Origin: Clostridia bacterium
GTDB lineage: Bacteria; Bacillota; Clostridia; Christensenellales; UBA1242
Assembly (NCBI GenBank): GCA_028709705.1
Contig: JAQVWL010000001.1
Location: 96,855-160,854, forward strand
Direction: 5' to 3'
Length of the DNA stretch: 64,000 nt
The notes under the pieces were generated by a model. That model did not search any database. It worked only from the letters and a program-made list of their open reading frames with translations, and was not told the DNA's origin. Below, piece by piece: positions 10,075 through 48,456 of the stretch. How positions within the stretch are numbered: the first letter of the stretch is position 1; each line of letters begins with the position of its first letter. Both the position numbers and the translations under genes were made by a program.

Positions 10075-10095
10075 ATTAAAAAGAGAAAAATTTGA

Positions 10096-10203
10096 GTGCG
10101 AAGCCTCGCACCCAAGATAATGCAATAAATTTTTGCAGATTTATGCAATTCACTGCGTGAATGCCATATGCCAACGCATATGCAATTTGCCTTTCGGCAA
10201 ATT
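10096..10203 (+). other. array of five back-to-back short stem-loops
   Basis: GTGCGA-agcc-TCGCAC (10096-10111). TGCAATAAAT/ATTTATGCA (10121-10147, one bulge). ATTCAC-tgc-GTGAAT (10148-10162). CATATGC-caac-GCATATG (10165-10182). AATTTGCC-tttc-GGCAAATT (10184-10203), which is followed by a T-run and is probably the terminator of the Rho-like gene. Confidence 0.7.
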
Positions 10204-10228
10204 AAGGTTTTTATTTTAAAAATTTATT

Positions 10229-10628
10229 AGTAGTAACGAAGGTAAACGGGGACGCTAGCAACTGACACGAAAGCGTTAGCGGAAGGGTCAGTTGGCTACG
10301 TCCCCTTGACACAGGCAAAAACTTGCCTTTGTGCTTGTTTTTTGTTTCACAAAAAAGCATCGCTTTATCAGGCAAGTTTTTGCTTTTACGGACCAAGCGA
10401 AAACCGCATTTCATTGGCGGTTTTGTCCGTACTTTTTTTTGAAAGCAGATGTTCCAAGAATTATTATCAAATTGTATTACAAAAAACAGGTCAAGGGGAC
10501 GTAGCACCCTTGACCGTTCGCCTACGGCTCCTGTCAATTGCTACGTCCCCGTTGACCTTCGCTCCCGTGTCAGTTACTACCGTCCCCGTTGACCTTCGCT
10601 TCGTGTCAGTTACTACGGACCCGTTGAC
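10229..10628. repeat. composite nested-palindromic repeat element, copy A
   Basis: Left arm: F unit GGTAAACGGGGACGCTAGCAACTGACACG (10241-10269) plus R' unit GGTCAGTTGGCTACGTCCCCTTGAC (10286-10310). Centre: 178 bp. Right arm: F' GGTCAAGGGGACGTAGCAC (10489-10507) plus three tandem R units (10531-10557, 10566-10594, 10602-10628) at a 36-37 bp period. F/R and R'/F' are reverse complements. Confidence 0.9.
10388..10440 (+). terminator. two-tier rho-independent terminator inside element A
   Basis: Outer stem ACGGAC/GTCCGT (10388-93 / 10425-30). Inner stem AAAACCGC/GCGGTTTT (10400-07 / 10417-24). Then T8 (10433-10440). Confidence 0.75.
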
Positions 10629-10659
10629 TTACATTATAAAACGCAAAAAGGCAAAATTC

Positions 10660-10688
10660 AAGGTGAAAAAAATCACCTTTATTTTTTT
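10660..10688 (+). terminator. rho-independent terminator upstream of the giant-gene promoter
   Basis: AAGGTGA (10660-66) pairs with TCACCTT (10673-79), A6 loop, then TTTATTTTTTT. Confidence 0.7.
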
Positions 10689-10730
10689 GCAAAAAAATGT
10701 CTAAAAATAAAAGATTGTGTTCCAATTTGC

Positions 10731-10759
10731 TTGATAATTTGTTGTCAATAAAATATAAT
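10731..10759 (+). promoter_or_regulatory. sigma-A type promoter of the 15.8-kb gene
   Basis: TTGATA (10731-36), 17-nt spacer, TATAAT (10754-59). AGGAG RBS at 10771-75 and GTG start at 10784. Confidence 0.55.
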
Positions 10760-10783: not shown

Positions 10784-13700
10784 GTGCCTAATGTAAAACT
10801 AAATTTTTGGACAGTTTTTGTCTTGATTGCAAGTGCATTGATAATGACACTTGGTTTTGGTGTTTATAACAAAGCAATAACCGAAAATGTTTTCGCCGAA
10901 ACAACAACCTTAAACACTCAAACTGAAACAACTTCTTCGAGTACTTTGTCTAACAATACTTTAATAAAAAACGAAAATCCAGACCCTGTTGGTGTTGATA
11001 TAGAAGTTTATCTTAATATAAAATGTGGGGATGGAGGAAGTTATTTTAAGGTCCTATTTGTAAATGTTTATGGAATTGGCACAGAACTGATAAGCACTGG
11101 TGATTGGGCTCAGAGTGGCAGGAGAATTATAATTGACAGTGCTAGTATTTATTTATACTATCCAACTGCCCAAAATGGATATGTTTTTGATAAATTTTTT
11201 GTTGACGAAACAGGCAATAGTAGATATGTCTCCGCCAGCGAAGGCACAACAGTTAGTATAAGTCACTCAGCAAATATTGTTGCATTATTTAAACCTATAA
11301 CTTATAGCATAACCTACGACCTGGACGGCGGTTCGGCAAGTAACCCAACAACATATAATATCACTTCTTCTTTTTCATTAACTGCACCAACAAAAACTGG
11401 TTATACTTTTACAGGTTGGACAGGTTCAAATGGTTTAAGTCCACAGCAAAATGTTTCTATTTCAAGCACAACGGGCGACAAAAATTACACAGCAAATTGG
11501 CAACCAAACACATACAACATTACTTTCAACAAAGGTAGTGGAACAGGTGGAACTTCCTCATCAGTTTTCACTTATGATTCAGAATTGCCAGGTATTACCC
11601 CTCCATCGCAAAGAGGTTTTGATTTTAAGGGTTATTATACTGGTTCAAATGGTAGTGGAACATGTTATTACAACGAATATTGTACTTCCCAAATCACCAA
11701 ATTCACTAGTATCAACGTTTCAAATTTATACGCATATTGGGTGTCAAAATATTACACAGTAACACTAGACAAGCAAGGTGGTTCGGGCGGAACAAGTTCG
11801 GTTCAAGTGCAAAATGGAAGTTCAATGCCTGCAATAATTCCGCCAAGTTGGTTGGGGTATACTTTTGTGGGTTATTTTGCAAATACAAATACAAACAGTA
11901 CAAAATACTATAATTCAAATGGAACGGGAGCAACTACTTGGGATAAAACAGACAATGGCACAATCAATGCAGTTTGGACGCTTAATTCTTGCAGTTTATC
12001 AGTTAGTAAAGACAGCGGAATCACTGCATTCAACTATTATGCGGGCAGTTGGTCGGGCAATGTTGAAAGTGCAAGTCAAAGCAATATAAATGCTTTAAGC
12101 ATTTTAGAATTTAGAGTTTTAGACACTCAAATAAAAACAGGTTATGTGTGGAATTGTTGGCAAATATCAGGAACTGCGGGCGTTGACTATGATTTTTTTG
12201 GCGGAACAAACAGCACAAGTAAACAAATGAGTTTGAAAATTTACAAAAGCATTACCTTAATAGCAACAACCAAAATTGGCGTTTCAATCAGTTGCGTTAA
12301 TAACTCAACAGGGCTTTATACTGCAAATGGAGCGGGCGGTTCAGTCAAAATTGGAAGTGGCGAGTATGTTCCATCAATAACAGAAGGCTTTTTAAGTGGT
12401 GCTTCAACAACTTTAAGCACAAAAGGCAATTTTGCTTACACTTTTTTAGGTTTTTTCACTGCGTTTGATTCAAATGGCGGAATTGGCGAGTCTTTGACAT
12501 ATCAAACATATAATGCGGGAACCGAAAATCAATATTTTTCAGTTAATATTGCCAATATTTTGGCACCACAAAATTATTATGCAGTTTATGAAATTGAATG
12601 TTATGACCTTAATTTGTACGCATTTTCCACACATACAAATCAGTATGAAGAAATTCCCGACTTGTATGGTGGTATTGTAAAAATTGGCAACCAAACAGGC
12701 GGAGCAATTGATTATGGGCATGTGGGCTACACCCTTCAAATAAATATAAATGCAGAAGCAAATGATGGTTATAGATTTATTGGTTGGTATGACACTTATG
12801 AAGACTTGGTTGCCGATGTTGCAAATACCCAAATGATAAGTAACAATGCAAACTATTTCTTTTATATGGAAGATTATGACACTGATTTTTATGCAAAATT
12901 TATAAAAACACACACTGTTACTTTAGTTGCAACAACGGGCATAAGTTCTGTTTCTATTGAAAACAAATCAGGCACAACTGCTGAATATTATTACGGCGAA
13001 AGTATAGGCTTGTTAAGTTGTGTTGTTGATGAAATAAGATACACTTGGAAAAATTGGGAAGTTACAAGCGGAACAGAACCAAGCGGAACAACTATTCAAT
13101 TAAAAGGTCAAGAAATTTCTGGTCTTGTTATGAACGGTTATGATTTTGAATTTACCGCTTACACAACAACCAAAAAATTCGATTTGAATATTTACACAAT
13201 TTACAATGACTCTGGCACTCTTGTTAACAATTACACAAACGGAACAAATTATGGCGGTTTGGTTTCAACAACAAACTTGTCAAACGCAGTTCCTTATTAT
13301 AGTAATATAAAAGTAGAATATAATACTTTTGATGTAAATATGACCGCATTTGTCAATGAAGGTTACACTTTTATGGGCTGGTACAAAGATGTTGATTTTG
13401 TTTCAAATACTTATTCCACACCATACTTGCAAGGCACAACTTCGGGCAGTGCAATCAGCATAGAACCAATGGCAGTCGAAGGCTTGACATATTATGCTAT
13501 TTTCACAAAAAATTATAAAGTTTCTATCTATGGCGATAGCGGAATTTATAGTTTGACATTAACCAATGGCTCACAAGTGCAATACGATACTGACAAATAT
13601 TATTTGGAAGCAATTTATTATTATGGTCAACAAATAGAAAGCATTACCGCAACAATTGGTTTTGGTTTTGATTGGGAAGAATGGGTTTTGGGCGAGTCTA

Positions 13701-16700
13701 GCACTCTTTTGATAAATTTTAACCTTTTAGACAGAGTTCAAACAACAGAAATTTTTATGGGTGCAGGTGATTGCGTTTTGACTGCAAACACCTTTGCAGA
13801 CCAATATCCTTTGCATGTAAAGGCATATTACACTGACAATGGTGTTTATCATTATGGAAACAATGGTGGAAGCATTCAAATTGCAAGCCGTGAAATTGCT
13901 AGCGAAGATGGATTGGACCTTGATTTTCAACAAAAAATTGCAATAACAGCGTATCCCGAAGAGGGTTATTGCTTTGTTGGTTGGTTTAAAACACAAGTGT
14001 TAACTTATCCCAATGAAAATTTATATTCAGGCGATTTGTCAACAATGACTGAACCTATGCAATCAAATGAAAATGGTTTGACATATATTGCAGTTTTTAT
14101 AAAAACATATACTCTTACATTGACAAAATGGGAAGGTATTAACTCTGTTAGCACAACAAAAGAAAGTTATTATTATGGCGAAAGCGTTGGAATTAATGCT
14201 ATTGTTACAAGCGGTTATGAATGGGATAAATGGTTTTTGGTTAATGGACTAGCACCTATTGATTTTGATGAAAATTTGCAACTTCAAACAATAAAAATAC
14301 AAGGCAATGTTGTATTGGCTGCGTCAACAAAATCTCAAAAATATACATTAGATGTCACCGAAATGTATGAATTAACTAATGGTTCATATACAGTTGGCAC
14401 AACGGGCGGAACAGTAAACGATGGTGAAATGTCTTATTTGGCGGACATTGTTTCTATTATTACTGAAAACGAAGGATTTGAATTTGCTGAATATTTTCGT
14501 GATGAAGCACTAACAAATTCTTATGGTGGCGAAGTTATGCCACAAAACGATTTGACTTTGTACGCCAAATTTAAAAGAATTGAATATCAATTAACAACAA
14601 ACAATATTTATACTTCTGCTTTGGATAATCAAACCTTGATTGCAGGAACAACTGGCGGGCAAATTTATTCAAACAACACAATAAAATATGGTTGTCAAAC
14701 AGAGTTAACCGCAGTTGCAAGTGATGGTTTTGCTTTTAGAGGTTTTTATTTTGACAACCTTGGCACATCAGTTTACAAATTGGCAGAAGATTGCAATTTT
14801 GCAAACGGGAATTACACTTCATCAACCGAAGTTATGGGGACTGACGGTTTGATTTATTATGCTATTTTTGAAAGACAAACTTATACAATAGAAACAACAG
14901 GGCAGGGAACAACAATAACTTGCCCAAGCACTGCTTATTTTGGTAAATCAATTTCTTTTCAAGTAGAATATAATGATGCCTATGTTGTTTCAGCAATAAA
15001 TATATATAATGCAGACAATATTTATGAAACAGTAAATTATTCTAACAATCAGTTTGTTATGCCATATTTTGATATTGTTATAGAAACAGTTGCCACCGAA
15101 AAAAATTATCAAATTACTTTTAATCCCAATGGTGGCAGTTTTGATGGTTACACAGGTGTTGATGTTAGCGGAAACATTATAGGAAACACTGCATACTTAA
15201 CAAACAATTATTTGTATTATACAAACGCAGAAAAAACAAATTTTGTTTCAGGCGCACCACTTCCAACAAGAAATGGTTACAAACTTTTGGGCTTTAACAC
15301 TGATGCAAATGCTTTGGGAACTTATTATGTTTCTTACAACAATAGTTTTTCTTATGCAATTTGGAATTTAAGCGAAGATAAAATGCTTTATGCAATTTGG
15401 CAAATACAATCTCCTTTGCTAAATATTGAATATGTTAGCGGAACGCAAACACAATACAATGGTCAATACCAATCAGCATTAAGAGTGTCAGTTCAAAACA
15501 TTGTTCCAAACAAAAATTATATTTTTGAATGGTTTAACAGTGAAGGGCAACTAGTTTCTCAAACAACAACAAATCAAACCTCAAATGTATTGTCTTTAAG
15601 GAATGTAAATCAATCAAGTTTATATTACTGCAAAGTGTCAATAGAAAATGAAAGCGTTTTTACTGAATCTAGTTCATTGTCTTTTTCAATAACCACAATA
15701 GATTTGACAATTGATATTGGCACGCAAACTTACATAGGTTCTTACTTATATTTGCTTTCTAATGAAAATATATCAGGTTTGTTAGAAGGTCACAGATTTG
15801 TTAGCGGTTATTTAAGTTTTAACAGCGGAACCGAAGACATTATATATACTAATATATCAAATATTAACCACCAAGTTATCATTGAAGTTTTTGATGGCGG
15901 TGTTTGGACAAGTCAACAAGGTGGAGACTTGATTGACAATTATAACATTATTTTTGCTAGCACGGTTACAGTAAAACCTATCACTCAATCTATCAAACTC
16001 AATGTTGGCGGATATGAAAGAACGATAGACAGTAACACATATTTAGATGTTTTTTCTGAAAATGTTTTGTCAAACACATTGTTTGATTTTGGTTATGAAG
16101 GCGGTTTTGGGTCTTTTAACACAATTGAAGATAATGGAACAATTTCAAATTATTTTGAATTGGATAACATAAATCAAACTTTGACTATTACTTTTACTCA
16201 AATACCAAATTATTATAAAATTTTTGCATTATATGTAAACAATGTTAGCGTAAATTACACAGTTGACTTATACAACGAAAATATCATTTCCTTTGATTTA
16301 ACAGCAGGTATGTTGTCTTATAACTCTGAAAACGATTTTTGGGACGCTGTTGTCAAAGTTTATTTTACCAATGTTTGCTTGATAGAATACAATTACAATT
16401 TTGAAGTTTTAGAAGTTGAAAACGGCTTTGCAACTTTTGATAACAATTATCAAAAATCAATAATACAAAACGGGCAAAATTTTGTTGCTCCAACAACACC
16501 AACAAAAGTTGGTTTTTGGTTTGATGGCTGGTATTTTGACAACACAACTTTTGCAAATCAAGTTCCAATGGTATGGAACAAAACGGGTAGCACAACCATA
16601 TATGCAAAATGGACCCTTGCTGACCTTACCGCTCAAAATATTTTGGTTGAAGTTTATGACAACAATATTCTTACCGAATTGTTTAACAGGGCATATAACA

Positions 16701-19700
16701 CTAACTCTTTTGAACTAAAATTTGTTTCAACAAATCCAAGTATTACATATCAAGTTGTTTGGTACAAAAACCAAGATGGCTGGAAAGTTATTGAAACTTC
16801 AAAAATTTCAAACATAAAAAATGTGCTTGACGGTGGCGAATACTCTTTAAGTGTTAAAGCGATATACAATAGTCAAACAAAAAATCTTGCTTATGGCGTA
16901 AAAACTATTTTAATTAATATTTCTCCTGTTGAATTGACAATAGATTTTGACATTTCAAAGATTTATGATTCAACAACTCAACTAGGCAATTACAATATTG
17001 ATACCAATATCAATGGCGAACAATTCAATTTGGCTGGGCAATATAGCAGTCCAAATGTAAATTTGGTGGGCGGTGTTCCAAGTCAAGTTGCAATTTCAAA
17101 TTTTGCACTTGTCAGCATAAATGGTTCATTGCCAAGCAATTATAGTTTAACAAATACAAGTTTGTTTGGAACAATTATTCCTTTTGAATATAATATAGTA
17201 AAAAACGAAACAGCGGTTTATAACGGTGCAAGTTTTTCTAAAACTTTTGCACAAAACATAACGCTTCCAAAAGGTTATATTCAGTCAATAAATTACACAA
17301 TCAACACAAGCAGTGCAAATGTTGGAATTTACACTCCAAACGATTTAATAAATAATCTTTATCTTGATTTCAATGCAAGTGCAACAGGCTTGATTGCAGA
17401 CAACTATATTATCACACTTGGAAACGCAAGCAGTGTTGAAATAACAAAAACAAATTTACAAAATATATATTTTTCAGATCAAACAAAAATATATAATGCA
17501 GAATCACAAATGATAACCCTAAAAGATGCCTTTGGCGGAGATTATTCAACAGAAAACTTGCCAGATGGTTCAATAGGATTTGAATTTAAGCAAAATGAAA
17601 ATATTGTTACAGGCTTTACAGACTTTGGAACTTATTTGATAACGGTAATAATTTATGCTGACCAAAACCACAATGATTGGACAGACTCCGCTTCTTTGAC
17701 AATAAACAAAGCGATTATAAGTATTGAGTTTTTGTTCAATGGCGAAGCACTTGCACCAGCATATATTTACAATTCAGAAATTGATATGTATAGCAATTTG
17801 ACAATAAACGCTACCAATGAAAGCGGAACAAACTGCTTGCCAAATGATTTGACCAAAAAAGTTTTTCAAAACGCAATGGAAGTTTTTGAAGTAACAACCC
17901 CTAACGAATATGTTATAAAAGCGGAAAATTACAACACAAACTACCAAATTCAAGGCAATGACTCACAAAGTTTCAAAATTGTTGCAAATCAATATATTGT
18001 AAGTGAAGATATAACTTTTGAAAATGCAAGTTATGTTTTCAATGCAGAAAATCAAGCAAATTATTTTGTAAACCAAAACTTGATACCAAACTTGCCAGAA
18101 GGCATAGAAACTGCAACAACTATTGTTCAACTTTTTGATGGAACAAACTACAACATTGTTGCAACTGCACAAAATGTTGGTGTTTACAAAATAACGGTTG
18201 GCTTGCAATCACAAGACCCAAACATTTGGCAGTTCGACACTTCTTCAATTACTGCTTATTTGACTATCACTCCTTTTAATATAACCAACGAAAACACAAC
18301 AATTTCTGCAAACAAAATTTATAATGGTTTAACAAGTTTGCCAGCAAATGCAAAACTTAACATAACAAGCCTTTCTCTTCAAATTGCTTTTGGCGGTGTT
18401 TTTGCAAGTGCAAATGTTGGAACAGACATTGCAATAAACAACTTAACTATAAGTGATAACAACTTTACAATCAATCCAAGTTTTGTTGCAATGGCAACCA
18501 TAAGCAAAGCAAATTTGACAATAAACTTGTTTGAAAATGGAATTTCAGGAAATTACATACAAAAATCTTACGCAGATTTGGTGCAAATTCAAATAAACAA
18601 AAGCAATGCAAGCAAATATACAGTTGGTTTGCAAAATAACCAATATGCAGTGATTTTGTTTGAAGCGATTGGCATAGGCGGGGGACAATACCCTTTCAGT
18701 GATGAAAATCCAGAAACAAATCATTGTTTAATAAATGGTGCAATCTCTATTTATAATTCTAGCGATACCTTAATACCAAATGGCATAGAAAATTATAATT
18801 TACAAATAAATGGCGGAATTGAATTGCTAATGTTTATTTCTGTTCCCGAATTTTCAAACTTGACAAACTTGGTTTACACAGGGCAAAACTTACCAATTCA
18901 ACTAGTTTTGTCAAAATACAACGAACTAACAGAACAACTTGAAACGTTGACATACACATATGATTATGCAAACGAGTATTTTATTGACGAAAATTTACTT
19001 ATAGTAGATGATTTAGTGTTAACGATTTTAGGAGCGGGCAGTACATTGAAAAATGCGGGCGAATATACTTTGACATTAACAAGTCCAAATTTTTCTTATT
19101 TGTTTGTTTCAGAAGGCGAAAATCAATACACGACAACAGTTATTGTTGAAAAAGCACAAATCACTTTTAATTTAGGCGATAGGTTATTTGTTTATAAAAG
19201 TGTTTTTGCATATTCAAACGACACTGCTTATAGCGGAGTTAATGGCGAAACTTTTTATTGCAATTTTACTTACAATGGCAACACAACAACTTTGCCAGTT
19301 GGCGTTTATCCATTAACAAATTTAACCACAATTTATGAATTTAACACCAGCAAAACCAGCACAGGCGATTTTACAAACTATGATATAACAATAATAGGCA
19401 ATTTGTTTATTTCCGCCAGAACAATAACGATGACGGCAGGATATGATTTGCTTGGTTTAATTTATTCAGCCGAGGACCAAATTTCAAGCGTTAACGCCGT
19501 TATTCTAACATTTTATTACTTTGACAATCCTTACGCAGTTGATGCAAGCGACTACACAAAAAAATATTATTTGGGAGCAAATGAAGTCAGTCAAATCATA
19601 AATGCGGGAACATATACAGTAAAATTTACTTCAACAAATTACAACCTTACAGGCACTACAACTTTTGAATTTACAATTTCACAGAAAGAAATAACAGCAA

Positions 19701-22700
19701 ATTTTAATATAAATGGTGACCTTGTTTACAATGGTGCGCAACAAACACCAATTTATGCAACCTTTGATGGCATTTTGGGGGCAGACATTGCCCAAATGGG
19801 TGCAAAAATAACTTATGATGGCTTTGGCACAACAATAAAAAATGCCGGCATATATAGTGCGATAGTTAGCATAACAAACCAAAATTATTTGCTAACAGGC
19901 ACAACAGTTTTTGATTTTAATTTATTATCTTATTTATATTATGTTCCAACACCAAGTGAAGTGTTGTTTTCAAAAACTTTTGGTGCAGTTGACCCAACAC
20001 TAGAAACAACTTACAATGTTTTGGGCGAAAATGTAAAAATAGTGTTTGGAAGAGAAGCGGGCGAAAATGTTGGCAAATATGCTTTACAAAATCCGCAATT
20101 AAGCACAAACAATTCTATTGCAACTCAAAGCAATTTCTATATTGGATATTTTGAAGAAAACAACCAAGGTTTTGAAATTTTGGCAAAAACAGGCGTTGAA
20201 GGAAGGTTGTTTATTGAACTTTTAGACAACATAGAAGTTGATTACAATGGACAAGAATACTATGAGCTTGAATTACAAGACATTGACCCAAGTTTGTATC
20301 AAATCAAAGATTATTGGGGAGATACTTTAGAGCAAAATGATTACAACCTTGTTGCAAATTTCTTCTTTTATGATTTTGTAAGAAATGTTGGAGAATATTC
20401 AATTTACTTATCTGATTTTTATTCCACAACACACAAAGACATTGTGTCATTGATAGCAAACGGCCAAAAATTTGTTATAAATGCCATAGAATTGACAGTA
20501 AGTCAAACGCCCGACACAACAATATCAAAACAATATGACAAAACAAGCGAAGCAGTTTTGACCGACATTTTGTTTTTGAATGGTGTTATTGGTGGAGATA
20601 ATGTTACATTGGTTGGAAATTACACAACCGATGGAACAAATCAAGTAAATGTAAATGAAAATTACACAATTTTGTTGAATATAAGCGGAACCGATGCTCA
20701 AAATTACATTTTAAGTTATGGCGACTTTTTTGGGGAAATAACACAAAGAGAAATAATAGTAGTTTCTTATGATTTTCAAAACGAAAATCCTTTTGACAAG
20801 CAATATGACAAAAATAGCATAGTAAACATTGACCAATTATATTTAGACAATACAATCTACAATGATAATGTTAGTTTTTCAGGCGTTTATACAACAAATG
20901 GAACTGATGAAATTGCAACTGTTTATTCAAACTGCATTTTGATTTTTACAACAACAAATCCAAATTACAAAATAGTCAAAATTGATGACCAAGAATATTT
21001 TGGCAGTATCACACCAAAAATTTTGACTTTGGCAAATGACTCAATTTTGACAAAGCAATATGACGGAACCGCAAGTTTAAATACTGAAAATTTATCTTTG
21101 CTAGGAGTTGTTTTTGGCGACACTGTTTCAATTTTAAGTGCAAATTTTGCATCAGAAACTGTTGGCACGCACGATTTGGATATAACACTTGGTGGAACTG
21201 ATAGCGAAAATTATATTATTGAAACTTATGAAGGAACAATAACAAACAGAATAATAACAATAAAATATCATTATGGCGATGACCAAGACTATATTTTTGA
21301 TTTTCCAAACGATGAAATCTCTTTGTCTTATACCGAAACAAACACAACTGCTTTTTATAACACAAGCCTTAATAACGCACAAAATGGTGCAAAATCTTTA
21401 CCTTCAATAACAAGAACGGGATATGTTTTTGCTGGTTGGTATACAGATAGCACAACTTTTACAACTCAATTTTATGCAAGCACAATAATTGGAAATGATG
21501 CTTGGTCAAACATTGAAAACTTGGCACCAGATTATGAAATAAACTTGTTTGCAAAATGGATAGTAAATTCTTATCAAATAACTATTGAATTGTTAACAGA
21601 AGAAATCAACACAACAAATTTTGCTTATTCAAATATTGGCGGATATTATGACATTGACAACTCAAACAGTGGTTTGATTCCACCTTATTTTCAAACATAT
21701 TATTACACTTATTATTCAACCCATACCCTAGATATTATTGAAAATGCTGGGTTTAAAATTGAAGAAATAAAAAAGAACGGAACATTTGTTAGCAATGATT
21801 TGGTTTATGAGTTAACAAATATAAATTCAAGTTTTGTTATAACAATAAAATTTGCGCGCGAACTTTATACACTTGCATTAGATGCTAACACAACAGATAA
21901 TATTATAAGTGGTTTTTCTGGTTATACTGTAAGCGGACAACTTGCAACAAAACAAATCAAATATCAAGCACAAATAGAATTGCCAATTTTGACAAGGCAA
22001 GGATATAGTTTCTTGGGGTGGTCATTGGCAGAAAACAGCGAAGTTGTTTTCAGTCAAAGCACAACACTTACTTATCAAAGTACACAAGCAACACAACTTT
22101 TTGCTCAATGGCAAACAAAAACTTTTAATTTGTATTTTGATTACAACAATGGTGTTGAAAGTGTTGGATATACAAGTTTATCAGATGAAAAAGGCAATTA
22201 TATAATTGTTACTTATGAACAAGCAATAGGCGAGTTGCCAATTTTGACAAGAAATGGCTATTTACAAGATATTTGGAATTTGCTTGTCAACAGCGAAATT
22301 GTTGAAACCGATATAACCCCAAGCACAATTTGGTTATATGACAGTGCAAACACTTTTGTTTTAAAGGCAACTTGGCTAGAAACAATAAATTCTATTGAAC
22401 TTGCCCAAAGACTTGACACATCTTTGTATTTAGCCGAATATGAATTGTTTTCTGACAATCCTGTTGCACTTGCATATAAAATAAACAATGGTGAAACAGA
22501 AAATTATAGCGAGCAATTTGAAGTTTATACAAATGACAAAATAAATATTACAGCAACTATGACTCATATATCTTACAAGTTTAGTGGGTGGTATGTTAAC
22601 GGAGTTTTGCTTGCAAGTGGAAGTCAAACTATATATGGAACAACATTTGAAACAAACGGTCAAAACTTGAAAATCACAAATATTATGTGGGGCGAAAATT

Positions 22701-25700
22701 GTCCTTTGATAGAAGCAGTGTATGTTCCTGCAAAAGTTGAAGTGCATTTGACGTTGAATAATTTGAATGGATCAGTTGATTTTGCAGTTGGCGTTTTTGA
22801 AGAAGAAAACAAATATTACACTTTTGCTAGTTCAATAATAGAAGTTGCCTATCAAGTAGATTCGGGCTACAATGTTATAATTGGAGTTAACGGTGGTAAT
22901 AGAGGTTTCAGCCACGGTAATTTGGTAGTAAATCAAATTTTTGAAGATGTTTATATTACTTTCACTTTTGAAATATGTTCATATGCACTGACAGTAACTT
23001 ATTCGGGTTACACAGAAGGTTTGGATAGTTTTGTTTATAATATAAACAATGGAACAAACAACAATTACAATCAAAATATCAACATAAGTACGGGCGATGT
23101 TGTAAACTTTTCCCTTGCAATAAAATATGGTTATCAAGTACTTGCCAATGATTTTCAAATCATAGGTGGCGGTGAAGACACCCTATTGACTGATTTGGCA
23201 ACTTTTGTGCAAGATGACAAAAATATTTATGAAAAATCATTATCACAGTTTACAAGCAGTTTAACTTTAAATATTTATATTTCAAAACTTATCTTCAATG
23301 TTTCTGCCAATGTGGTTATTGACCAAACAGATAACTACGATTTCAGTTCAACAGAAAATAGCGTTGCAATAAAAAATCATGTAAACACCATTATCACCAG
23401 CATTGGTTACAAAGAAATTGCATCTTTTGTTGCCGAAATTCAAACATACACAACAATTTTTGATTTAGTTGTAGAAAAATATGATTTTCTTGGTTGGTAT
23501 TCTTACAAAAATTTGCAATTTAGTTTGTTAAGTGAAAACCTTTCTTATGACAAAGAAATAAGCGAAGACACTCAACTTTTTGCAATGTTTAAACTCAAAA
23601 AGTTTGAAATAACATTTGCCTTAAATAATGCCGAAGAAGGTAGTTTGGTTTCAGGTTATGGCGGAAATCCGGTTAACCCTCAATTTGCAAATTTTGGTTC
23701 GAGTTTGACCAATAGTGTTGTTGCAGTTGCAAAAACAGGTTATTCTTTTGAAAAATGGATTTTATCTTACGATATTACACAAATTGAAAGTCAATTAACA
23801 AGCGAAAGTTTGAGTTCAGCAAATGTCAATAATGTTGTTTGCAATGTCACTTGCACAGCATATTTTGTCAAGTTTGATATCAATGTTTTTGTCAACGCAG
23901 AGTTCGATGACGATACGGAAATTGACATAAGCAAAATAAATATTACACACAATAATCAAACTTCAACAAATCTAAATTTTTCAACCCAAACAAGAACAAA
24001 TATTCAAATTTTTGCAAACACAATCCAAGGATATAGTTTTGCAGGTTGGTTGATTGGTGCTGACAGTCAAAGTTATATTATCACAAGCAGTACTGTGTCA
24101 GTTGACAATTTATTCGCAGAATTGAACATTCAATTTGTTGAGGGAGAAGCAACCTATACAATCACAGCAATTTTTGAAAGAACCTTAAACGAAATAACGG
24201 TGCAACTTGTTTTGGACAATGGCGCAAAACTTGGCGGTGGCGTTGTGACAACTGAACAAAACTACTTTACAGGAGCAACACTTATCACTTACGCAAAAAC
24301 ATTTGACACACTAAAAGTTTTTGTGTATGTGCATTATGGTTACTTTATTGATTTAAATAGGGCAAATTTAGTTTTGTTTGAAGTTGGCAACGGCGAATAT
24401 GTTTTTGAAAGTGCAGAACTAATTGCCGATGCAAGTGCGGTTTACAGTGCAAAATATTTGCTAACAATTAGTTCGTTTGATGAAAATTTGGTTATCAAAG
24501 TTTTTGCTGAACGAAATACAACTACATTACATTTTTATGAACAAAATTTTCAGGCAATAAATCAAAATGAAAAATATAATTTGTCAGAAACGACCGCTAC
24601 AATAAAATATGGTACAACACAAATAAATATAGAAAATTCACTTTTCTTAACACCAAACAATTCAGGTTATACTTTTCAAGGTTGGTCAATCAGCAAATAC
24701 ATTTCAGGTTTGATTATTAACAAATACGGTAACATAAATTCTGAAACTTGGCAAATAAATGCTGAAGATATATATTTATATCCAATTTGGGAGCAAAAAA
24801 AGGTAAAAATTGATATAAAACTTAATCCCGAAAATGCAAAAATTGATAGTTCATATTATGAAGAATTGTTTAACAATTTGACCTTAAACAAACCAATAAA
24901 GGTTGGGTTAAGTTATTATTTCTTTGTTGGCGCAACTTTTGGAATTTCTTTCCCCGAAGTTCACAGCGGATATATTTTTGTTGGTTACAAACTATTAACA
25001 TACAATCAAGACAACACTTTTAGTTGGATTAGTGTTAGTTTAAACAGTTCAGATTTTTTAAGAACACAGTTTTCTATTGAAGATTATGACCATTATGAAT
25101 ATTCTTCTGCAACAAATTTTGCACAATTGGGCGATGTAATTGATGGAACAATGTATATAGAACTTGTTTACAACATAGAAGTTTTTGCGTCATCAGCAAA
25201 TTATTACACAGACAATAGAATTTCTACAATAGGTGGCACTGCAACAATACAAAACATAGGTGAAAGCGGAAATATTTCTTCTGGGCAAGAAATAACTGTT
25301 ATTGCAACTCCGCAAACGGGATATACTTTAAAATATTTGATAATAAATGGCAATATTTTGGAAACTCAAACCTTATACAACACTTTTTCAATTTACGAAC
25401 CAACAAGCATAGTCGCAGTTTTTGTGGGTGATAAAGTAATAGTCAATTTGGGTTTAAGCCTTAATGGAACCGCAAAAGCAATTACAGGTGGCAATTTGGA
25501 AACCATAAATCTAACAAAATATTATCATATTGGCGATATTATAATTTTGGACGCAGAAAGTAATATTGGTTATAATTTTGAAAACAATTGGAATCATTCC
25601 AAAACAGGAGATTTTGTTGGCAGTTCTTATACAATTGTTTTGGGCGATATTGACCCCAATGGCATAACGCTTACCCCAATATTTACTGAAAGAGATTTGC

Positions 25701-26575
25701 TTGTTGAATTTGTTATGATAAACAAGTTTGGAACTATTTCCAAAGAAGGTGTTAGATTTGATATTGTTGATGAAGGAAACAATCAAATTTATAAATTTTA
25801 TTCAAAATATTTTGATGACATAAATGTTCAAATAAGCCCTAAACCAAGACACGTTTTTGAAAAAGTTTTGTTAAAAATTGGCACCACTACAACAAATGTA
25901 ACAAGTTTTACAAGCGGAACAAACCTTATAATTACAAGCAATTATTTTGCAAATGCAAACAAAATTGTTTTTGAAATTTCTTTTACAAACCTTTATTGGT
26001 ACAATATAATGACCGAAAAAAATTATGTAACCGAAACGCAAAATGGTTATGTGTTAAACAGAGATTTGTTTGGCAGTGGAAAGGAAGATGACCCATATAG
26101 AATTGAAAGTATTGATGATTTTACTATTTGGGCTTTTATAATAAATCACAACATTTTGCAAACTAACATTCAAAAATTTGCTTACAATTCTTCAAACACT
26201 CATTATGAAGTTAGCACAGAAATTAGTTTCTTGGCAAGATATTGGACACCTATTGGTACATCCGTAAACCCTTTTAATGCGATTGTGTATTTGTATGAAC
26301 CAAGAAAAGATATTCTCGTTGACCGCACAGATACAAACTATCCGTACTATACTTTGTTTAACAACGAAGTTGTCACATTGTGGAATGGTTTGTTTGGTTA
26401 TTTGAGCGACACTGCACAAATATTTGAAGTTGTAAAAAATTATGATTTTGTTTATTTTGTAATTGGCGGAATTGCAGGCATTGTTGTTATAGCAGTTTTA
26501 ATAATAGTTTTTGTCAACAAAAAACACAAATATCAAATAGAAACTTATGACAAAAACAAAAATCCTTTTGTTTAA
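10784..26575 (+). CDS. giant (5263 aa) tail-anchored surface protein with InlB B-repeat (Flg_new) and MBG-type modules
   Basis: Uninterrupted 15.8-kb ORF in AT-rich DNA. N-terminal hydrophobic signal/anchor (FWTVFVLIASALIMTLGFGV). Dozens of modules with the G(Y/F)xFxGW(Y/F)...Y(A)xW/F signature, and a central block of KxYD(G/K/S)T...NY modules. Near the C-terminus there is a GSGKEDDPYRIES...GLFGYL segment, then a TM helix (FVIGGIAGIVVIAVLIIVFV) and a KKHK tail. No LPXTG. Confidence 0.9.
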   Translation: MPNVKLNFWTVFVLIASALIMTLGFGVYNKAITENVFAETTTLNTQTETTSSSTLSNNTLIKNENPDPVGVDIEVYLNIKCGDGGSYFKVLFVNVYGIGTELISTGDWAQSGRRIIIDSASIYLYYPTAQNGYVFDKFFVDETGNSRYVSASEGTTVSISHSANIVALFKPITYSITYDLDGGSASNPTTYNITSSFSLTAPTKTGYTFTGWTGSNGLSPQQNVSISSTTGDKNYTANWQPNTYNITFNKGSGTGGTSSSVFTYDSELPGITPPSQRGFDFKGYYTGSNGSGTCYYNEYCTSQITKFTSINVSNLYAYWVSKYYTVTLDKQGGSGGTSSVQVQNGSSMPAIIPPSWLGYTFVGYFANTNTNSTKYYNSNGTGATTWDKTDNGTINAVWTLNSCSLSVSKDSGITAFNYYAGSWSGNVESASQSNINALSILEFRVLDTQIKTGYVWNCWQISGTAGVDYDFFGGTNSTSKQMSLKIYKSITLIATTKIGVSISCVNNSTGLYTANGAGGSVKIGSGEYVPSITEGFLSGASTTLSTKGNFAYTFLGFFTAFDSNGGIGESLTYQTYNAGTENQYFSVNIANILAPQNYYAVYEIECYDLNLYAFSTHTNQYEEIPDLYGGIVKIGNQTGGAIDYGHVGYTLQININAEANDGYRFIGWYDTYEDLVADVANTQMISNNANYFFYMEDYDTDFYAKFIKTHTVTLVATTGISSVSIENKSGTTAEYYYGESIGLLSCVVDEIRYTWKNWEVTSGTEPSGTTIQLKGQEISGLVMNGYDFEFTAYTTTKKFDLNIYTIYNDSGTLVNNYTNGTNYGGLVSTTNLSNAVPYYSNIKVEYNTFDVNMTAFVNEGYTFMGWYKDVDFVSNTYSTPYLQGTTSGSAISIEPMAVEGLTYYAIFTKNYKVSIYGDSGIYSLTLTNGSQVQYDTDKYYLEAIYYYGQQIESITATIGFGFDWEEWVLGESSTLLINFNLLDRVQTTEIFMGAGDCVLTANTFADQYPLHVKAYYTDNGVYHYGNNGGSIQIASREIASEDGLDLDFQQKIAITAYPEEGYCFVGWFKTQVLTYPNENLYSGDLSTMTEPMQSNENGLTYIAVFIKTYTLTLTKWEGINSVSTTKESYYYGESVGINAIVTSGYEWDKWFLVNGLAPIDFDENLQLQTIKIQGNVVLAASTKSQKYTLDVTEMYELTNGSYTVGTTGGTVNDGEMSYLADIVSIITENEGFEFAEYFRDEALTNSYGGEVMPQNDLTLYAKFKRIEYQLTTNNIYTSALDNQTLIAGTTGGQIYSNNTIKYGCQTELTAVASDGFAFRGFYFDNLGTSVYKLAEDCNFANGNYTSSTEVMGTDGLIYYAIFERQTYTIETTGQGTTITCPSTAYFGKSISFQVEYNDAYVVSAINIYNADNIYETVNYSNNQFVMPYFDIVIETVATEKNYQITFNPNGGSFDGYTGVDVSGNIIGNTAYLTNNYLYYTNAEKTNFVSGAPLPTRNGYKLLGFNTDANALGTYYVSYNNSFSYAIWNLSEDKMLYAIWQIQSPLLNIEYVSGTQTQYNGQYQSALRVSVQNIVPNKNYIFEWFNSEGQLVSQTTTNQTSNVLSLRNVNQSSLYYCKVSIENESVFTESSSLSFSITTIDLTIDIGTQTYIGSYLYLLSNENISGLLEGHRFVSGYLSFNSGTEDIIYTNISNINHQVIIEVFDGGVWTSQQGGDLIDNYNIIFASTVTVKPITQSIKLNVGGYERTIDSNTYLDVFSENVLSNTLFDFGYEGGFGSFNTIEDNGTISNYFELDNINQTLTITFTQIPNYYKIFALYVNNVSVNYTVDLYNENIISFDLTAGMLSYNSENDFWDAVVKVYFTNVCLIEYNYNFEVLEVENGFATFDNNYQKSIIQNGQNFVAPTTPTKVGFWFDGWYFDNTTFANQVPMVWNKTGSTTIYAKWTLADLTAQNILVEVYDNNILTELFNRAYNTNSFELKFVSTNPSITYQVVWYKNQDGWKVIETSKISNIKNVLDGGEYSLSVKAIYNSQTKNLAYGVKTILINISPVELTIDFDISKIYDSTTQLGNYNIDTNINGEQFNLAGQYSSPNVNLVGGVPSQVAISNFALVSINGSLPSNYSLTNTSLFGTIIPFEYNIVKNETAVYNGASFSKTFAQNITLPKGYIQSINYTINTSSANVGIYTPNDLINNLYLDFNASATGLIADNYIITLGNASSVEITKTNLQNIYFSDQTKIYNAESQMITLKDAFGGDYSTENLPDGSIGFEFKQNENIVTGFTDFGTYLITVIIYADQNHNDWTDSASLTINKAIISIEFLFNGEALAPAYIYNSEIDMYSNLTINATNESGTNCLPNDLTKKVFQNAMEVFEVTTPNEYVIKAENYNTNYQIQGNDSQSFKIVANQYIVSEDITFENASYVFNAENQANYFVNQNLIPNLPEGIETATTIVQLFDGTNYNIVATAQNVGVYKITVGLQSQDPNIWQFDTSSITAYLTITPFNITNENTTISANKIYNGLTSLPANAKLNITSLSLQIAFGGVFASANVGTDIAINNLTISDNNFTINPSFVAMATISKANLTINLFENGISGNYIQKSYADLVQIQINKSNASKYTVGLQNNQYAVILFEAIGIGGGQYPFSDENPETNHCLINGAISIYNSSDTLIPNGIENYNLQINGGIELLMFISVPEFSNLTNLVYTGQNLPIQLVLSKYNELTEQLETLTYTYDYANEYFIDENLLIVDDLVLTILGAGSTLKNAGEYTLTLTSPNFSYLFVSEGENQYTTTVIVEKAQITFNLGDRLFVYKSVFAYSNDTAYSGVNGETFYCNFTYNGNTTTLPVGVYPLTNLTTIYEFNTSKTSTGDFTNYDITIIGNLFISARTITMTAGYDLLGLIYSAEDQISSVNAVILTFYYFDNPYAVDASDYTKKYYLGANEVSQIINAGTYTVKFTSTNYNLTGTTTFEFTISQKEITANFNINGDLVYNGAQQTPIYATFDGILGADIAQMGAKITYDGFGTTIKNAGIYSAIVSITNQNYLLTGTTVFDFNLLSYLYYVPTPSEVLFSKTFGAVDPTLETTYNVLGENVKIVFGREAGENVGKYALQNPQLSTNNSIATQSNFYIGYFEENNQGFEILAKTGVEGRLFIELLDNIEVDYNGQEYYELELQDIDPSLYQIKDYWGDTLEQNDYNLVANFFFYDFVRNVGEYSIYLSDFYSTTHKDIVSLIANGQKFVINAIELTVSQTPDTTISKQYDKTSEAVLTDILFLNGVIGGDNVTLVGNYTTDGTNQVNVNENYTILLNISGTDAQNYILSYGDFFGEITQREIIVVSYDFQNENPFDKQYDKNSIVNIDQLYLDNTIYNDNVSFSGVYTTNGTDEIATVYSNCILIFTTTNPNYKIVKIDDQEYFGSITPKILTLANDSILTKQYDGTASLNTENLSLLGVVFGDTVSILSANFASETVGTHDLDITLGGTDSENYIIETYEGTITNRIITIKYHYGDDQDYIFDFPNDEISLSYTETNTTAFYNTSLNNAQNGAKSLPSITRTGYVFAGWYTDSTTFTTQFYASTIIGNDAWSNIENLAPDYEINLFAKWIVNSYQITIELLTEEINTTNFAYSNIGGYYDIDNSNSGLIPPYFQTYYYTYYSTHTLDIIENAGFKIEEIKKNGTFVSNDLVYELTNINSSFVITIKFARELYTLALDANTTDNIISGFSGYTVSGQLATKQIKYQAQIELPILTRQGYSFLGWSLAENSEVVFSQSTTLTYQSTQATQLFAQWQTKTFNLYFDYNNGVESVGYTSLSDEKGNYIIVTYEQAIGELPILTRNGYLQDIWNLLVNSEIVETDITPSTIWLYDSANTFVLKATWLETINSIELAQRLDTSLYLAEYELFSDNPVALAYKINNGETENYSEQFEVYTNDKINITATMTHISYKFSGWYVNGVLLASGSQTIYGTTFETNGQNLKITNIMWGENCPLIEAVYVPAKVEVHLTLNNLNGSVDFAVGVFEEENKYYTFASSIIEVAYQVDSGYNVIIGVNGGNRGFSHGNLVVNQIFEDVYITFTFEICSYALTVTYSGYTEGLDSFVYNINNGTNNNYNQNINISTGDVVNFSLAIKYGYQVLANDFQIIGGGEDTLLTDLATFVQDDKNIYEKSLSQFTSSLTLNIYISKLIFNVSANVVIDQTDNYDFSSTENSVAIKNHVNTIITSIGYKEIASFVAEIQTYTTIFDLVVEKYDFLGWYSYKNLQFSLLSENLSYDKEISEDTQLFAMFKLKKFEITFALNNAEEGSLVSGYGGNPVNPQFANFGSSLTNSVVAVAKTGYSFEKWILSYDITQIESQLTSESLSSANVNNVVCNVTCTAYFVKFDINVFVNAEFDDDTEIDISKINITHNNQTSTNLNFSTQTRTNIQIFANTIQGYSFAGWLIGADSQSYIITSSTVSVDNLFAELNIQFVEGEATYTITAIFERTLNEITVQLVLDNGAKLGGGVVTTEQNYFTGATLITYAKTFDTLKVFVYVHYGYFIDLNRANLVLFEVGNGEYVFESAELIADASAVYSAKYLLTISSFDENLVIKVFAERNTTTLHFYEQNFQAINQNEKYNLSETTATIKYGTTQINIENSLFLTPNNSGYTFQGWSISKYISGLIINKYGNINSETWQINAEDIYLYPIWEQKKVKIDIKLNPENAKIDSSYYEELFNNLTLNKPIKVGLSYYFFVGATFGISFPEVHSGYIFVGYKLLTYNQDNTFSWISVSLNSSDFLRTQFSIEDYDHYEYSSATNFAQLGDVIDGTMYIELVYNIEVFASSANYYTDNRISTIGGTATIQNIGESGNISSGQEITVIATPQTGYTLKYLIINGNILETQTLYNTFSIYEPTSIVAVFVGDKVIVNLGLSLNGTAKAITGGNLETINLTKYYHIGDIIILDAESNIGYNFENNWNHSKTGDFVGSSYTIVLGDIDPNGITLTPIFTERDLLVEFVMINKFGTISKEGVRFDIVDEGNNQIYKFYSKYFDDINVQISPKPRHVFEKVLLKIGTTTTNVTSFTSGTNLIITSNYFANANKIVFEISFTNLYWYNIMTEKNYVTETQNGYVLNRDLFGSGKEDDPYRIESIDDFTIWAFIINHNILQTNIQKFAYNSSNTHYEVSTEISFLARYWTPIGTSVNPFNAIVYLYEPRKDILVDRTDTNYPYYTLFNNEVVTLWNGLFGYLSDTAQIFEVVKNYDFVYFVIGGIAGIVVIAVLIIVFVNKKHKYQIETYDKNKNPFV
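11297..11989 (+). repeat. three canonical Listeria-Bacteroides (Flg_new) repeats within the giant gene
   Basis: ITYDLDGG...TKTGYTFTGWTGSNG...YTANW; ITFNKGSGTGG...QRGFDFKGYYTGSNG...LYAYW; VTLDKQGGSGG...WLGYTFVGYF...INAVW. Confidence 0.8.
20489..21262 (+). repeat. three tandem ~85-aa MBG-type modules (part of a longer block, approx 15.7-21.3 kb)
   Basis: The same pattern recurs three times: I(S/L)(K/T)KQYD(K/G)T...L(N/L)GV(I/F)GGD.V...G..(T/S)(D/E)..NY...(Y/F)G.IT. Confidence 0.7.
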
Positions 26576-34889: not shown

Positions 34890-34916
34890 TTTCCCTCTCT
34901 CACAACGACAAAAATT

Positions 34917-34943
34917 ATTATAAGTCAATAATTACAAAAGCAA
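34917..34943 (-). promoter_or_regulatory. candidate promoter of the 7.7-kb gene
   Basis: On the minus strand, TTGCTT followed by a 15-nt spacer and TATAAT (the forward-strand ATTATA at 34917-22). The spacer is short, so the -35 assignment is uncertain. Confidence 0.4.
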
Positions 34944-35074
34944 AAAAATATGTAATTAATTTTTTATTCGCAAAAATATTTTATCAAATTTTGTCATTTT
35001 ATGCAACTAAATTTGGTATTAATTATTATTTTATATATTTATAATATAATTATACTTATTATAGAAAAACAAAT

Positions 35075-35145
35075 GGTCAAGAGGAGGAGAGTCAACTGAC
35101 TCTCCGCTCCCGCTCCCGTGTCAGTAACTAGCGTCCCCGTTGACC
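35075..35145 (-). repeat. half copy (left-arm type, minus orientation) of the palindromic repeat family, copy B
   Basis: CGTGTCAGTAACTAGCGTCCCCGTTGACC (35117-35145) is an R unit on the plus strand, equivalent to an F unit on the minus strand. The adjacent diverged R'-like part contains the self-complementary GGAGAGTCAACTGACTCTCC (35086-35105). No partner arm is present. Confidence 0.85.
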
Positions 35146-35164
35146 TTGTTTGATATTTCACAAC

Positions 35165-37381: not shown

Positions 37382-37457
37382 AATTTTGTAAATATATTTG
37401 CGTTGCATAATGACAGATATTTTGCAAAGAATAATAAAAAACGGAGGGTTTTTTGAT

Positions 37458-48144: not shown

Positions 48145-48364
48145 AGTAGCAAAGGTCAATGGGGACGGTAGTAACTGACACGTAGCGGAGGTCAACGGGG
48201 ACGTTAGCAACTGACACGGAGCAAAGCGGAGGGTAAGTTGGCTACGTCCCCTTGACCTGTTTTCTGTAATACCGCGTTTACGTGTCAAGGGGACGTAGCC
48301 AACATGACTCTAGGGCTTCGCCCTTCGCGTCAGTTGCTAGCGTCCCCGTTCACCCTTGCTACCT
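48145..48364. repeat. composite nested-palindromic repeat element, copy C
   Basis: F units at 48154-48182 and 48190-48218 (36-bp period). R' at 48232-48257, a 26-bp centre, F' at 48284-48303 and R at 48326-48354. The terminal ~38 bp, AGTAGCAAAGGTCAATGGGGACG..., is inverted at the right end (...CGTCCCCGTTCACCCTTGCTACCT). Confidence 0.9.
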
Positions 48365-48414
48365 ATTGACCACTTTCAAAAACAAGCCCTTGTGGTTTGT
48401 TTTTAGTACAACAA

Positions 48415-48456
48415 ACAAAAAACTTCCGTTTAAAATTTTTAACGGAAGTTTTTTTA
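48415..48456. terminator. bidirectional terminator after the U32 peptidase gene
   Basis: A-run, CTTCCGTT (48423-30) pairing with AACGGAAG (48441-48), then a T-run. It abuts the minus-strand stop codon. Confidence 0.8.

Follow-up and report, generated by a model that had tools for sequence, protein, structure and literature searches.

A probable new family of modular, G+C-rich extragenic repeats in an uncultured Clostridia lineage

Three extragenic copies in a 64-kb window

The 64-kb stretch of Clostridia DNA analyzed here (contig JAQVWL010000001.1, positions 96,855 to 160,854; hereafter the window) contains three copies of a modular, G+C-rich repeat element, and all repeat units found in the window are confined to the three intergenic loci occupied by these copies, A (10230–10632), B (35056–35152) and C (48146–48362). 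Each copy is extragenic and adjoins gene ends or terminators, with a terminator on one side and the following promoter on the other. Related loci were drawn from metagenome contigs and contigs of metagenome-assembled genomes (MAGs), which are labeled L001 to L024. The host is a spore-forming member of the Clostridia, with YpeB, SpoIIR and SipL present.

Copy A is preceded by a terminator (10184–10215), and no promoter is evident just upstream of it. Downstream lies a giant gene (10784–26575, +) which starts with GTG at 10784, with AAGGAG ahead, and is a 5263-aa open reading frame (ORF) for a surface protein that combines a YDG domain with Listeria-Bacteroides (Flg_new/InlB B) repeats. No orthologue was retrieved with the first 800 aa of this protein as the query; the top matches were repeat-domain proteins with 35–47% identity over 14–38% of the query. 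Exact-sequence look-ups with the EF-Ts and the U32 peptidase encoded in the window were likewise without a match. Because a terminator-like hairpin (10660–10679) and a promoter-like site of the gene's own (TTGATA-17-TATAAT, 10731–10759, 11/12 matches) intervene, the placement of copy A "upstream of the giant gene" in a preliminary description of this locus is correct only as a statement of position. Copy B has the terminator of a TraG/VirD4-like gene on one side and, on the other, the promoter region of a 2591-aa ORF; copy C lies between the convergent tsf and U32-peptidase genes. The features of the three copies are collected in Table 1.

Table 1. Positions of the features of copies A, B and C in the window
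Feature	Position	Strand	Basis
Copy A, head GTAGTAACGAAGG and type-1 unit F GGTAAACGGGGACGCTAGCAACTGACACG	10230..10271	+	consensus match, unit alignment
Copy A, type-2 unit R' (GTCAAGGGGACGTAGCCAACTGACCC on the minus strand)	10283..10312	-	16-mer match, inverted-repeat search
Copy A, cassette hairpin 1: 16-bp outer stem GCAAAAACTTGCCT/AGGCAAGTTTTTGC around a smaller hairpin	10313..10385	+	inverted repeat, fold, compensatory pairs
Copy A, cassette hairpin 2 followed by T8, intrinsic-terminator-like	10387..10440	+	fold, compensatory pairs
Copy A, AT-rich tail TATTACAAAAAACAG abutting type-2 unit	10475..10489	+	tail-motif comparison
Copy A, type-2 unit F' (beta variant, GTCAAGGGGACGTAGCACCCTTGACCG)	10490..10518	+	16-mer match, inverted-repeat search
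Copy A, three tandem 36-nt type-1 units: R1 10528-10564, R2 10564-10600, R3 10600-10632	10528..10632	-	repeat finder, Tandem Repeats Finder, profile
Copy B, single module: tail, degenerate type-2 arm, loop, type-1 unit 35117-35145, head	35056..35152	-	consensus match, profile, fold
Copy C, two tandem type-1 units F1 and F2, GTAGC heads	48146..48218	+	Tandem Repeats Finder, consensus match
Copy C, type-2 unit R' 48229-48256 and tail CTGTTTTCTGTAATA 48257-48271	48229..48271	-	16-mer match, tail motif
Copy C, module M2: type-2 unit F' 48284-48312 (+), loop, type-1 unit R with head 48324-48362 (-)	48284..48362	.	16-mer/consensus match, fold
Hairpin CAAAAACAAGCCCTTGTGGTTTGTTTTT next to copy C	48377..48409	+	nhmmer E 1.7e-4, weak: resembles first ~30 nt of the L005 cassette downstream of tsf

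A 29-nt consensus (GGTCAAYGGGGACGNTAGYAACTGACACG), with up to three mismatches allowed, matched the window at 10241(+), 10566(−), 35117(−), 48154(+), 48190(+) and 48326(−), that is, six times, compared to no match in 100 dinucleotide shuffles. The units at 10530 and 10602 carry a one-base deletion each; both were recovered by a repeat finder, with start-to-start spacings of 36 and 36 nt, and Tandem Repeats Finder described 10527–10628 as 2.9 copies of period 36 with 85% matches. An inner 16-mer (GTCAAGGGGACGTAGC) occurs without mismatch at 10295(−), 10490(+), 48241(−) and 48284(+), four times versus an expectation of 0.03. In copy A, the outer arms of 39 nt are 87% complementary and the inner arms of 37 nt are 73% complementary. 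A search of the window with a profile of the unit yielded 12 units (E ≤ 1e-4) and one degenerate arm.

These results bear directly on the preliminary description. A 29-nt unit present once in forward and three times in reversed orientation with a period of 36 nt was indeed found in copy A, from the consensus search, the repeat finder and Tandem Repeats Finder taken together, and the proposed layout F-R'-centre-F'-R(n) is correct, as is the variable number of units, which is one F and three R in copy A, two F and one R in copy C, and one of each in L001. The contrast between G+C-rich units and AT-rich surroundings is likewise real: the G+C content is 56.6–58.2% in the modules defined below and 21.9–29.8% in the flanks, with 31.7% for the window and 34.9% for the centre of copy A. 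Three points needed revision. The extent of the element, given as 10229–10628, is 10230/10233–10632 when the head is counted. The sequence taken for a constant 7-nt linker is there, but is not a linker; and the second, inner inverted pair, although it contains the 16-mer exactly and in both orientations, is not a separate repeat. The last two points follow from the alignment described in the next section.

Units and modules

Twenty-one units from the window and the related contigs were aligned. The 7 nt in question are part of a 36-nt unit, (GT)AGCAARGG + TCAAYGGGGACGNTAGYAACTGACACG, and the inner and the outer pairs are two subtypes of this one unit, type 1, (GT)AGCAARGG-TCAAYGGGGACGNTAGYAAYTGACACG, and type 2, GGTCAAGGGGACGTAGCCAACTGACCC. 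The actual building block of the copies is a larger, G+C-rich module of about 95 bp that forms an asymmetric, imperfect hairpin. In eight aligned modules the head, both units and the tail are conserved, and their order is the head GTAGCAARGG, the type-1 unit, a variable loop of 12–30 nt, the inverted type-2 unit and an AT-rich tail (CTKNNTTTNTGTAATA). The tail motif TATTAYA occurs no more than about 12 nt from the GTCAAGG end in five of the eight type-2 units (chance about 0.0075 per site), and the type-2 unit of L024, a sixth, has the near-match TACTATA at the tail position. Altogether, the tail adjoins type-2 units in copies A, B and C as well as in L001, L002 and L024. Since it lies beside the type-2 unit and the head at the other end, the module has two unlike ends.

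The modules are found singly (copy B, with a hairpin core at 35075–35145, and L024), as inverted pairs, and with additional tandem 36-nt units. Copy A is a compound of module M1 (10237–10312), a centre of 179 nt, module M2 (10488–10561) and two more tandem type-1 units that extend to 10632, the last of which, R3, is degenerate (GGGTCCG). The layout of copy C is F, M1, 27 nt, M2.

Folded as single-stranded DNA, the modules have z-scores of −3.1 to −7.3 in comparison to shuffled controls. M1 of copy A results from pairing of R' with F (DNA fold −18.1 kcal/mol, z −4.4) and M2 from pairing of F' with R1 (−22.8 kcal/mol, z −6.1); the fold of copy A as a whole is far beyond that of shuffled sequence (z −9.9). 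The spacers of the inverted doublets M1, M2, copy B, L003 and L024 are 16–70 nt long. The tandem single units at 10562–10632 fold weakly, and stable hairpins are formed only by doublets; by inspection, a single 36-nt unit offers just a 4-bp stem, GTCA/TGAC.

The ORFs that overlap the elements (10211–10537, −; 10306–10704, +; 48282–48542, +) have no Pfam match. Reading frames are not preserved between the copies, which differ by indels and an inversion.

The central cassette of copy A

The centre of copy A (10311–10489) is predicted to fold in two parts, hairpins 1 and 2 of Table 1. The inner 40 nt or so of hairpin 1 are identical in L001. Hairpin 2 together with its T8 run looks, in the predicted fold, like an intrinsic terminator on the plus strand; a simple terminator scanner left it unflagged, its loop limit being 3–8 nt versus the 9-nt loop present here.

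Two further copies of this structure were found. Upstream of ruvC on L001, the M1-centre-M2 layout is the same as in copy A. The two centres align as reverse complements, with 148/200 identical positions, and give no meaningful alignment in the forward direction; the flanking modules, in contrast, have the same orientation as those of copy A (69/79 and 75/84), the crosswise alignments being poorer. The breakpoints of orientation between the two loci fall in the type-2 cores. The third copy lies downstream of tsf on L005, a related MAG contig, with neither a G+C-rich module nor a type-2 unit to its left, the one visible side; immediately after the terminator the contig stops. Across the three copies 93% of the structure is paired, with compensatory changes in five pairs, of which four belong to the outer stem of hairpin 1; only 2/500 shuffles reached this number, and slid controls gave at most one. 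Two conserved U-G pairs favor the terminator-sense strand.

Judged from these alignments, the centre is an AT-rich cassette that is separable from the G+C-rich modules and is found in either orientation. The cassette appears to have been flipped between two identical type-2 cores, because the tail-bearing type-2 unit switches sides: it is on the right in copy A and on the left in L001 and copy C. The junctions are identical, which makes the flip of one inherited structure more likely than separate assembly at every locus. In copy C the two type-2 units are only 27 nt apart; just the tail and roughly 12 nt of cassette sequence remain, as if the cassette had undergone an internal deletion.

A promoter-like site (TTGAAA-17-TATTAT, 10439–10467, +, 10/12 matches) is located inside the cassette, past the terminator, and aimed into M2. 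This site is poorly conserved in L001.

Distribution and turnover among relatives

The RpsB sequences nearest to that of the host (88–95% identity) come from contigs no longer than 2 kb; among named relatives, Candidatus Caccopulliclostridium (78%) is the closest. In 185,579 GTDB representative genomes, neither the unit pattern nor the cassette pattern had a single match. The family had no match in viral contigs and none in plasmids and phages by blastn, and a blastn search with copy A against 5,426 E. coli genomes gave nothing. An Rfam scan of the window at gathering thresholds was likewise negative, and relaxed thresholds over the element produced only weak, generic matches. The similarity of the L003 hairpin to WsnRNA46 (42.8 bits versus a threshold of 65.3) or to miRNA precursors was dismissed as a sub-threshold effect of the long stem, not homology. 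A full-text search of the literature for core 11- to 13-mers returned unrelated primers and guide sequences only. Thus, the initial impression that the sequence was not a recognized one holds for Rfam and the sequence collections searched, where no known repeat or RNA family matches it.

Copies at further loci occur in related metagenomic contigs. Three contigs from JGI metagenomes carry units at other loci: L001 upstream of ruvC, L002 downstream of truA, and L003 between convergent genes, where two type-1 units surround an AT-rich loop of 68 nt. Relatives of the ruvC site were gathered through RuvC, and identities are given as ruvC nucleotide identity to L001, where M1, the cassette and M2 are present. 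L024 (99.0%) has a single module upstream of ruvC. In L023 (92.3%) two unrelated small palindromes and no module are found there, and in L022 (84.8%) the site is empty, consisting of a 115-nt spacer with a terminator and a promoter. L020 (84.1%) has a module upstream of ruvC, and the contig begins inside it. About 100 kb from relatives with 74–80% ruvC nucleotide identity (80–85% at the protein level) contained no unit and no cassette.

L001 and L024 are 98% identical from the common R unit onward, so that this unit forms the breakpoint; L005 and L021 have identical tsf genes and diverge 16 nt into the cassette, which is present only in L005. The ruvC gene of L001 has its own promoter (TTGACA-17-TAAAAT) downstream of the element. 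The contigs L002, L020 and L005 start or end inside units, as expected because multi-copy repeats disrupt assembly. Taken together, the comparison of these contigs indicates that the family is narrow in range and present at several loci, and that its content differs between contigs of the same species.

A second, unrelated family of small G+C-rich palindromes, GGGTGCGRGGCTTCGCACCC with AAATTT flanks, was observed in the window (10094–10113), in L023 (91–111 and 134–153), in L024 (23–42) and in L001 (about 18–39). It adjoins modules in the window and occurs upstream of ruvC in several relatives; in L023 it occupies the position that corresponds to the module of L024. An apparent inversion of this palindrome in L001 relative to L024 was rejected as uninformative, the palindrome and its AAATTT flank each being their own reverse complement. 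In a more distant relative, two contigs that encode one and the same RuvC protein, L012 (5150–5345) and L007 (10492–10600), differ between ruvC and ruvA by a palindromic insert that is also G+C-rich but of another sequence (ACGGGGCTTTGG...CCAAAGCCCCGT). Such small inserts may be general in this clade.

Nature of the family and rival explanations

On balance, the copies probably belong to a new family with a narrow distribution, whose members are small, extragenic, non-coding and non-autonomous repeats of the class that includes repetitive extragenic palindromic (REP) sequences, bacterial interspersed mosaic elements (BIMEs), BOX elements and miniature inverted-repeat transposable elements (MITEs). 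We favor this interpretation because the window has 12 units at three intergenic loci, with further, unrelated loci on L001, L002 and L003. The sequence family is unmatched in any collection searched, and its kind is familiar and not a new kind of system. As far as sequence comparison goes, the family is gained, lost and rearranged within species.

Mechanistically, the module of about 95 bp would be the unit that is copied or moved, by an enzyme that acts in trans and whose gene lies elsewhere in the genome. Our tentative candidate, put forward with clear reservation, is a HUH/Y1 transposase that acts on the hairpin of single-stranded DNA, either a REP-associated tyrosine transposase (RAYT) or an IS200/IS605-like enzyme. 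This type is preferred on account of the hairpin nature of the element, its two dissimilar ends and the GTAG found in many heads, and because none of six loci shows a visible target-site duplication. The tandem arrays probably grow when a unit is inserted next to another, or through slippage or unequal exchange at the 36-nt period, and the flip of the cassette would most simply be explained by recombination between inverted type-2 units. The host is probably affected only incidentally, in that the added hairpins and the terminator would insulate neighboring transcription units.

Several observations weigh against this interpretation. No transposase, recombinase or Y1/HUH protein was detected with Pfam among the approximately 45 ORFs of the window. 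A classical REP is palindromic, which the 36-nt unit is not; no more than about half of the units have the GTAG head, and the covariation in the module stems is almost nil (1/18 pairs). Because the stem pairs scarcely covary, the hairpin may merely follow from two conserved units lying in inverted orientation. The difference between L001 and L024 is a complex replacement, not a simple insertion, and the lack of a recognizable target-site duplication at the six loci was judged from diverged or rearranged comparisons, without a clean pair of an empty and a filled site. Moreover, only about ten loci are known, too small a number to speak for a high copy number throughout the genome; three are in the 64-kb window and about six others on short metagenome contigs, every one extragenic. 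One candidate of a different type, a CRISPR-like array, was rejected since the 36-nt units abut without spacers.

The main alternative to a HUH enzyme is a classical MITE, that is, a derivative of an insertion sequence (IS) with an internal deletion, for which a DDE transposase recognizes terminal inverted repeats (GTAGCAARGGTCAAYGGGGACG.../...CGTCCCCRTTGACCYTTGCTAC), moves the element by cut-and-paste or copy-and-paste, and leaves a target-site duplication. We consider this unlikely, even though L003 and the composite copies A and C have terminal inverted repeats of about 30–40 nt around an AT-rich core, the element sizes of 130–400 bp are typical of MITEs, copy C resembles copy A with an internal deletion, and internal tandem minisatellites have a precedent in the BrickBuilt element of Porphyromonas gingivalis (PMC4596501). 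None of the six loci inspected is flanked by direct repeats, the ends of a single module are unlike (head versus tail), and neither end matches the plasmid, phage, viral, E. coli or GTDB-representative collections. Selection for structure would offer quite another explanation, in which the copies are not selfish DNA but terminators, insulators, 3'-end stabilizers or a small RNA gene. This seems hardly probable to us. The cassette is conserved, with five compensatory pairs in three sequences (2/500 shuffles) and a U-run, each copy adjoins gene ends or terminators, and the entire copy A has a strong fold (z −9.9). However, presence at the same site varies within species and between close relatives, the orientation of the cassette relative to the neighboring genes is inconstant, native terminators already flank every copy, no promoter precedes the cassette of copy A, the module stems are without covariation, and no Rfam family reaches its threshold.

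A third possibility is an invertible terminator switch, in which a recombinase would act on the inverted 16-bp type-2 cores (10295–10310 and 10490–10505) and flip the 179-bp cassette, so that the orientation of the terminator blocks or permits read-through to the giant surface-protein gene. The model for this is the cwpV/RecV switch of C. difficile, in which 21-bp imperfect inverted repeats surround 195 bp that contain a terminator in the OFF orientation (PMC2784873). The similarity in geometry is considerable: perfect 16-bp inverted repeats around about 180 bp, an orientation-dependent terminator-like hairpin, and a large surface-protein gene with Listeria-Bacteroides repeats downstream, also in a member of the Clostridia. 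The reverse-complemented cassette of L001 between flanks of unchanged orientation, the breakpoints in the type-2 cores, and the tail-bearing cassette end that is joined to the type-2 unit at the same position in L001 and copy A all point to one structure that was flipped, and the terminator-like hairpin is strand-specific, with conserved G-U pairs and compensatory changes. We regard such a switch as improbable nonetheless. The two orientations were seen at different loci in different organisms and never at one locus, and the same structure recurs at the housekeeping loci ruvC and tsf. The segment does not lie between promoter and gene; unlike at cwpV, the promoter of the downstream gene is situated after the element, as is the 10660–10679 hairpin, and the same holds for the promoter of ruvC in L001. 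Immediately before copy A there is a terminator (10184–10215) and no evident promoter, the L005 cassette lacks a type-2 unit on the left, the window encodes no recombinase, and rare recombination between long inverted modules would yield the same pattern. In an extension of this model, the inverted type-2 cores and the two-hairpin cassette would together make up a portable, site-specifically invertible terminator that serves as a phase-variation "insulator" and is carried around the genome by the hairpin modules. Copy A would then control read-through into the 5263-aa adhesin gene, and the promoter-like site at 10439–10467 might add orientation-dependent transcription; to this we attach equally little credence. 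Were the flipped cassette truly an invertible terminator, it would be of wider interest.

Comparison with known repeat families

A non-autonomous extragenic repeat family, the interpretation favored here, invites comparison with known families. By analogy of architecture, its nearest counterparts are REPINs and BIMEs, BOX elements, and MITEs with minisatellites; membership among REPs or REPINs is not established by these likenesses, and the comparison with BOX and BIME/REP sequences made at the outset is apt as an analogy. In common with the REPs, BIMEs and REPINs of Proteobacteria, which are mobilized by RAYT Y1 transposases, the repeats are short, G+C-rich, strictly extragenic and often located just past terminators, and they share with them the higher-order tandem clusters, the GTAG start of many units, the lack of visible target-site duplication and the narrow lineage. 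As with the Y and Z units of BIMEs, the two subtypes alternate in orientation. In contrast to enterobacterial BIMEs, the family has no sequence identity with the E. coli genomes searched, and its host belongs to the low-GC Clostridia; in contrast to REPs, its 36-nt unit is not palindromic. According to their definition, REPINs are pairs of inverted REPs, separated by a spacer of variable length, that fold into a long hairpin (PMC3116915). Inverted doublets with long hairpins of this type are present as M1, M2, copy B, L003 and L024, but the module has unlike ends, with a head and an AT-rich tail. Group 1 RAYTs occur in Clostridia, though associated only weakly with repeats (PMC5581495). With respect to REP/REPIN-RAYT systems, no Y1 transposase was found in the window with Pfam.

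The pneumococcal BOX element (boxA-boxB(n)-boxC) is modular and intergenic, has a variable tandem subunit and ends that pair in a stable stem, and resides in a low-GC Firmicute. The modular layout, the variable tandem units, the pairing ends and the intergenic location recur here, a comparison that was made with the general description of BOX, not with its sequence. Differences are that one type of unit gives rise to both the inverted ends and the tandem part, that the units are G+C-rich in an AT-rich genome, and that a terminator cassette may sit in the middle of the element. The BrickBuilt MITE of P. gingivalis is intergenic and of limited host range, and consists of spacerless 23-nt tandem repeats between separate leader and tail segments with small inverted ends (PMC4596501). 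The family described here is similarly intergenic and narrow in range and has spacerless tandem repeats, of 36 nt, and distinct flanking parts. However, it differs in phylum and in sequence, and inverted hairpin doublets dominate, with no long tandem tract.

The results add a well-defined REPIN/BIME/BOX-like family to an uncultured lineage of low-GC Clostridia, while the best-studied repeat families of this kind are mostly from Proteobacteria and streptococci. The defined module, with its head, two unit subtypes and tail, provides a handle for finding the mobilizing enzyme. The units break metagenome assemblies, and they point to intergenic hot spots at which small palindromes of several kinds are gained and lost. 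As they differ between contigs whose neighboring genes are 99–100% identical, they could serve as strain markers.

Other features of the window

Directly 5' of copy A, the stretch 10118–10215 (+) resembles the Gut-1 RNA motif (RF01706; 32.6 bits versus a gathering score of 50). It contains three hairpins, with AUGCAAU before each, and then the terminator hairpin at 10184–10215; a promoter-like site (TTGAGT-18-GATAAT) is found by this motif at 10092–10121. The stretch may be a small RNA gene.

Near copy B, a gene for a TraG/VirD4-type coupling protein (35194–37164, −) and a type IV secretion system (T4SS) pilin gene (37398–37784, +) are isolated among housekeeping genes; the window contains no other conjugation genes, and the 2591-aa ORF (27153–34928, −) has no Pfam match. 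A genomic island bounded by copies A and B was considered and rejected, a compositional signal being absent.

Tandem repeats of other kinds are also present in the window. The region encoding the N-terminal part of IF-2 (infB, 55731–55861) contains repeats of 48 nt and 24 nt according to the tandem-repeat table, and the intergenic region between a NifU-like and a SipL-like gene contains extremely AT-rich, overlapping tandem repeats with periods of 20–51 (2117–2288).

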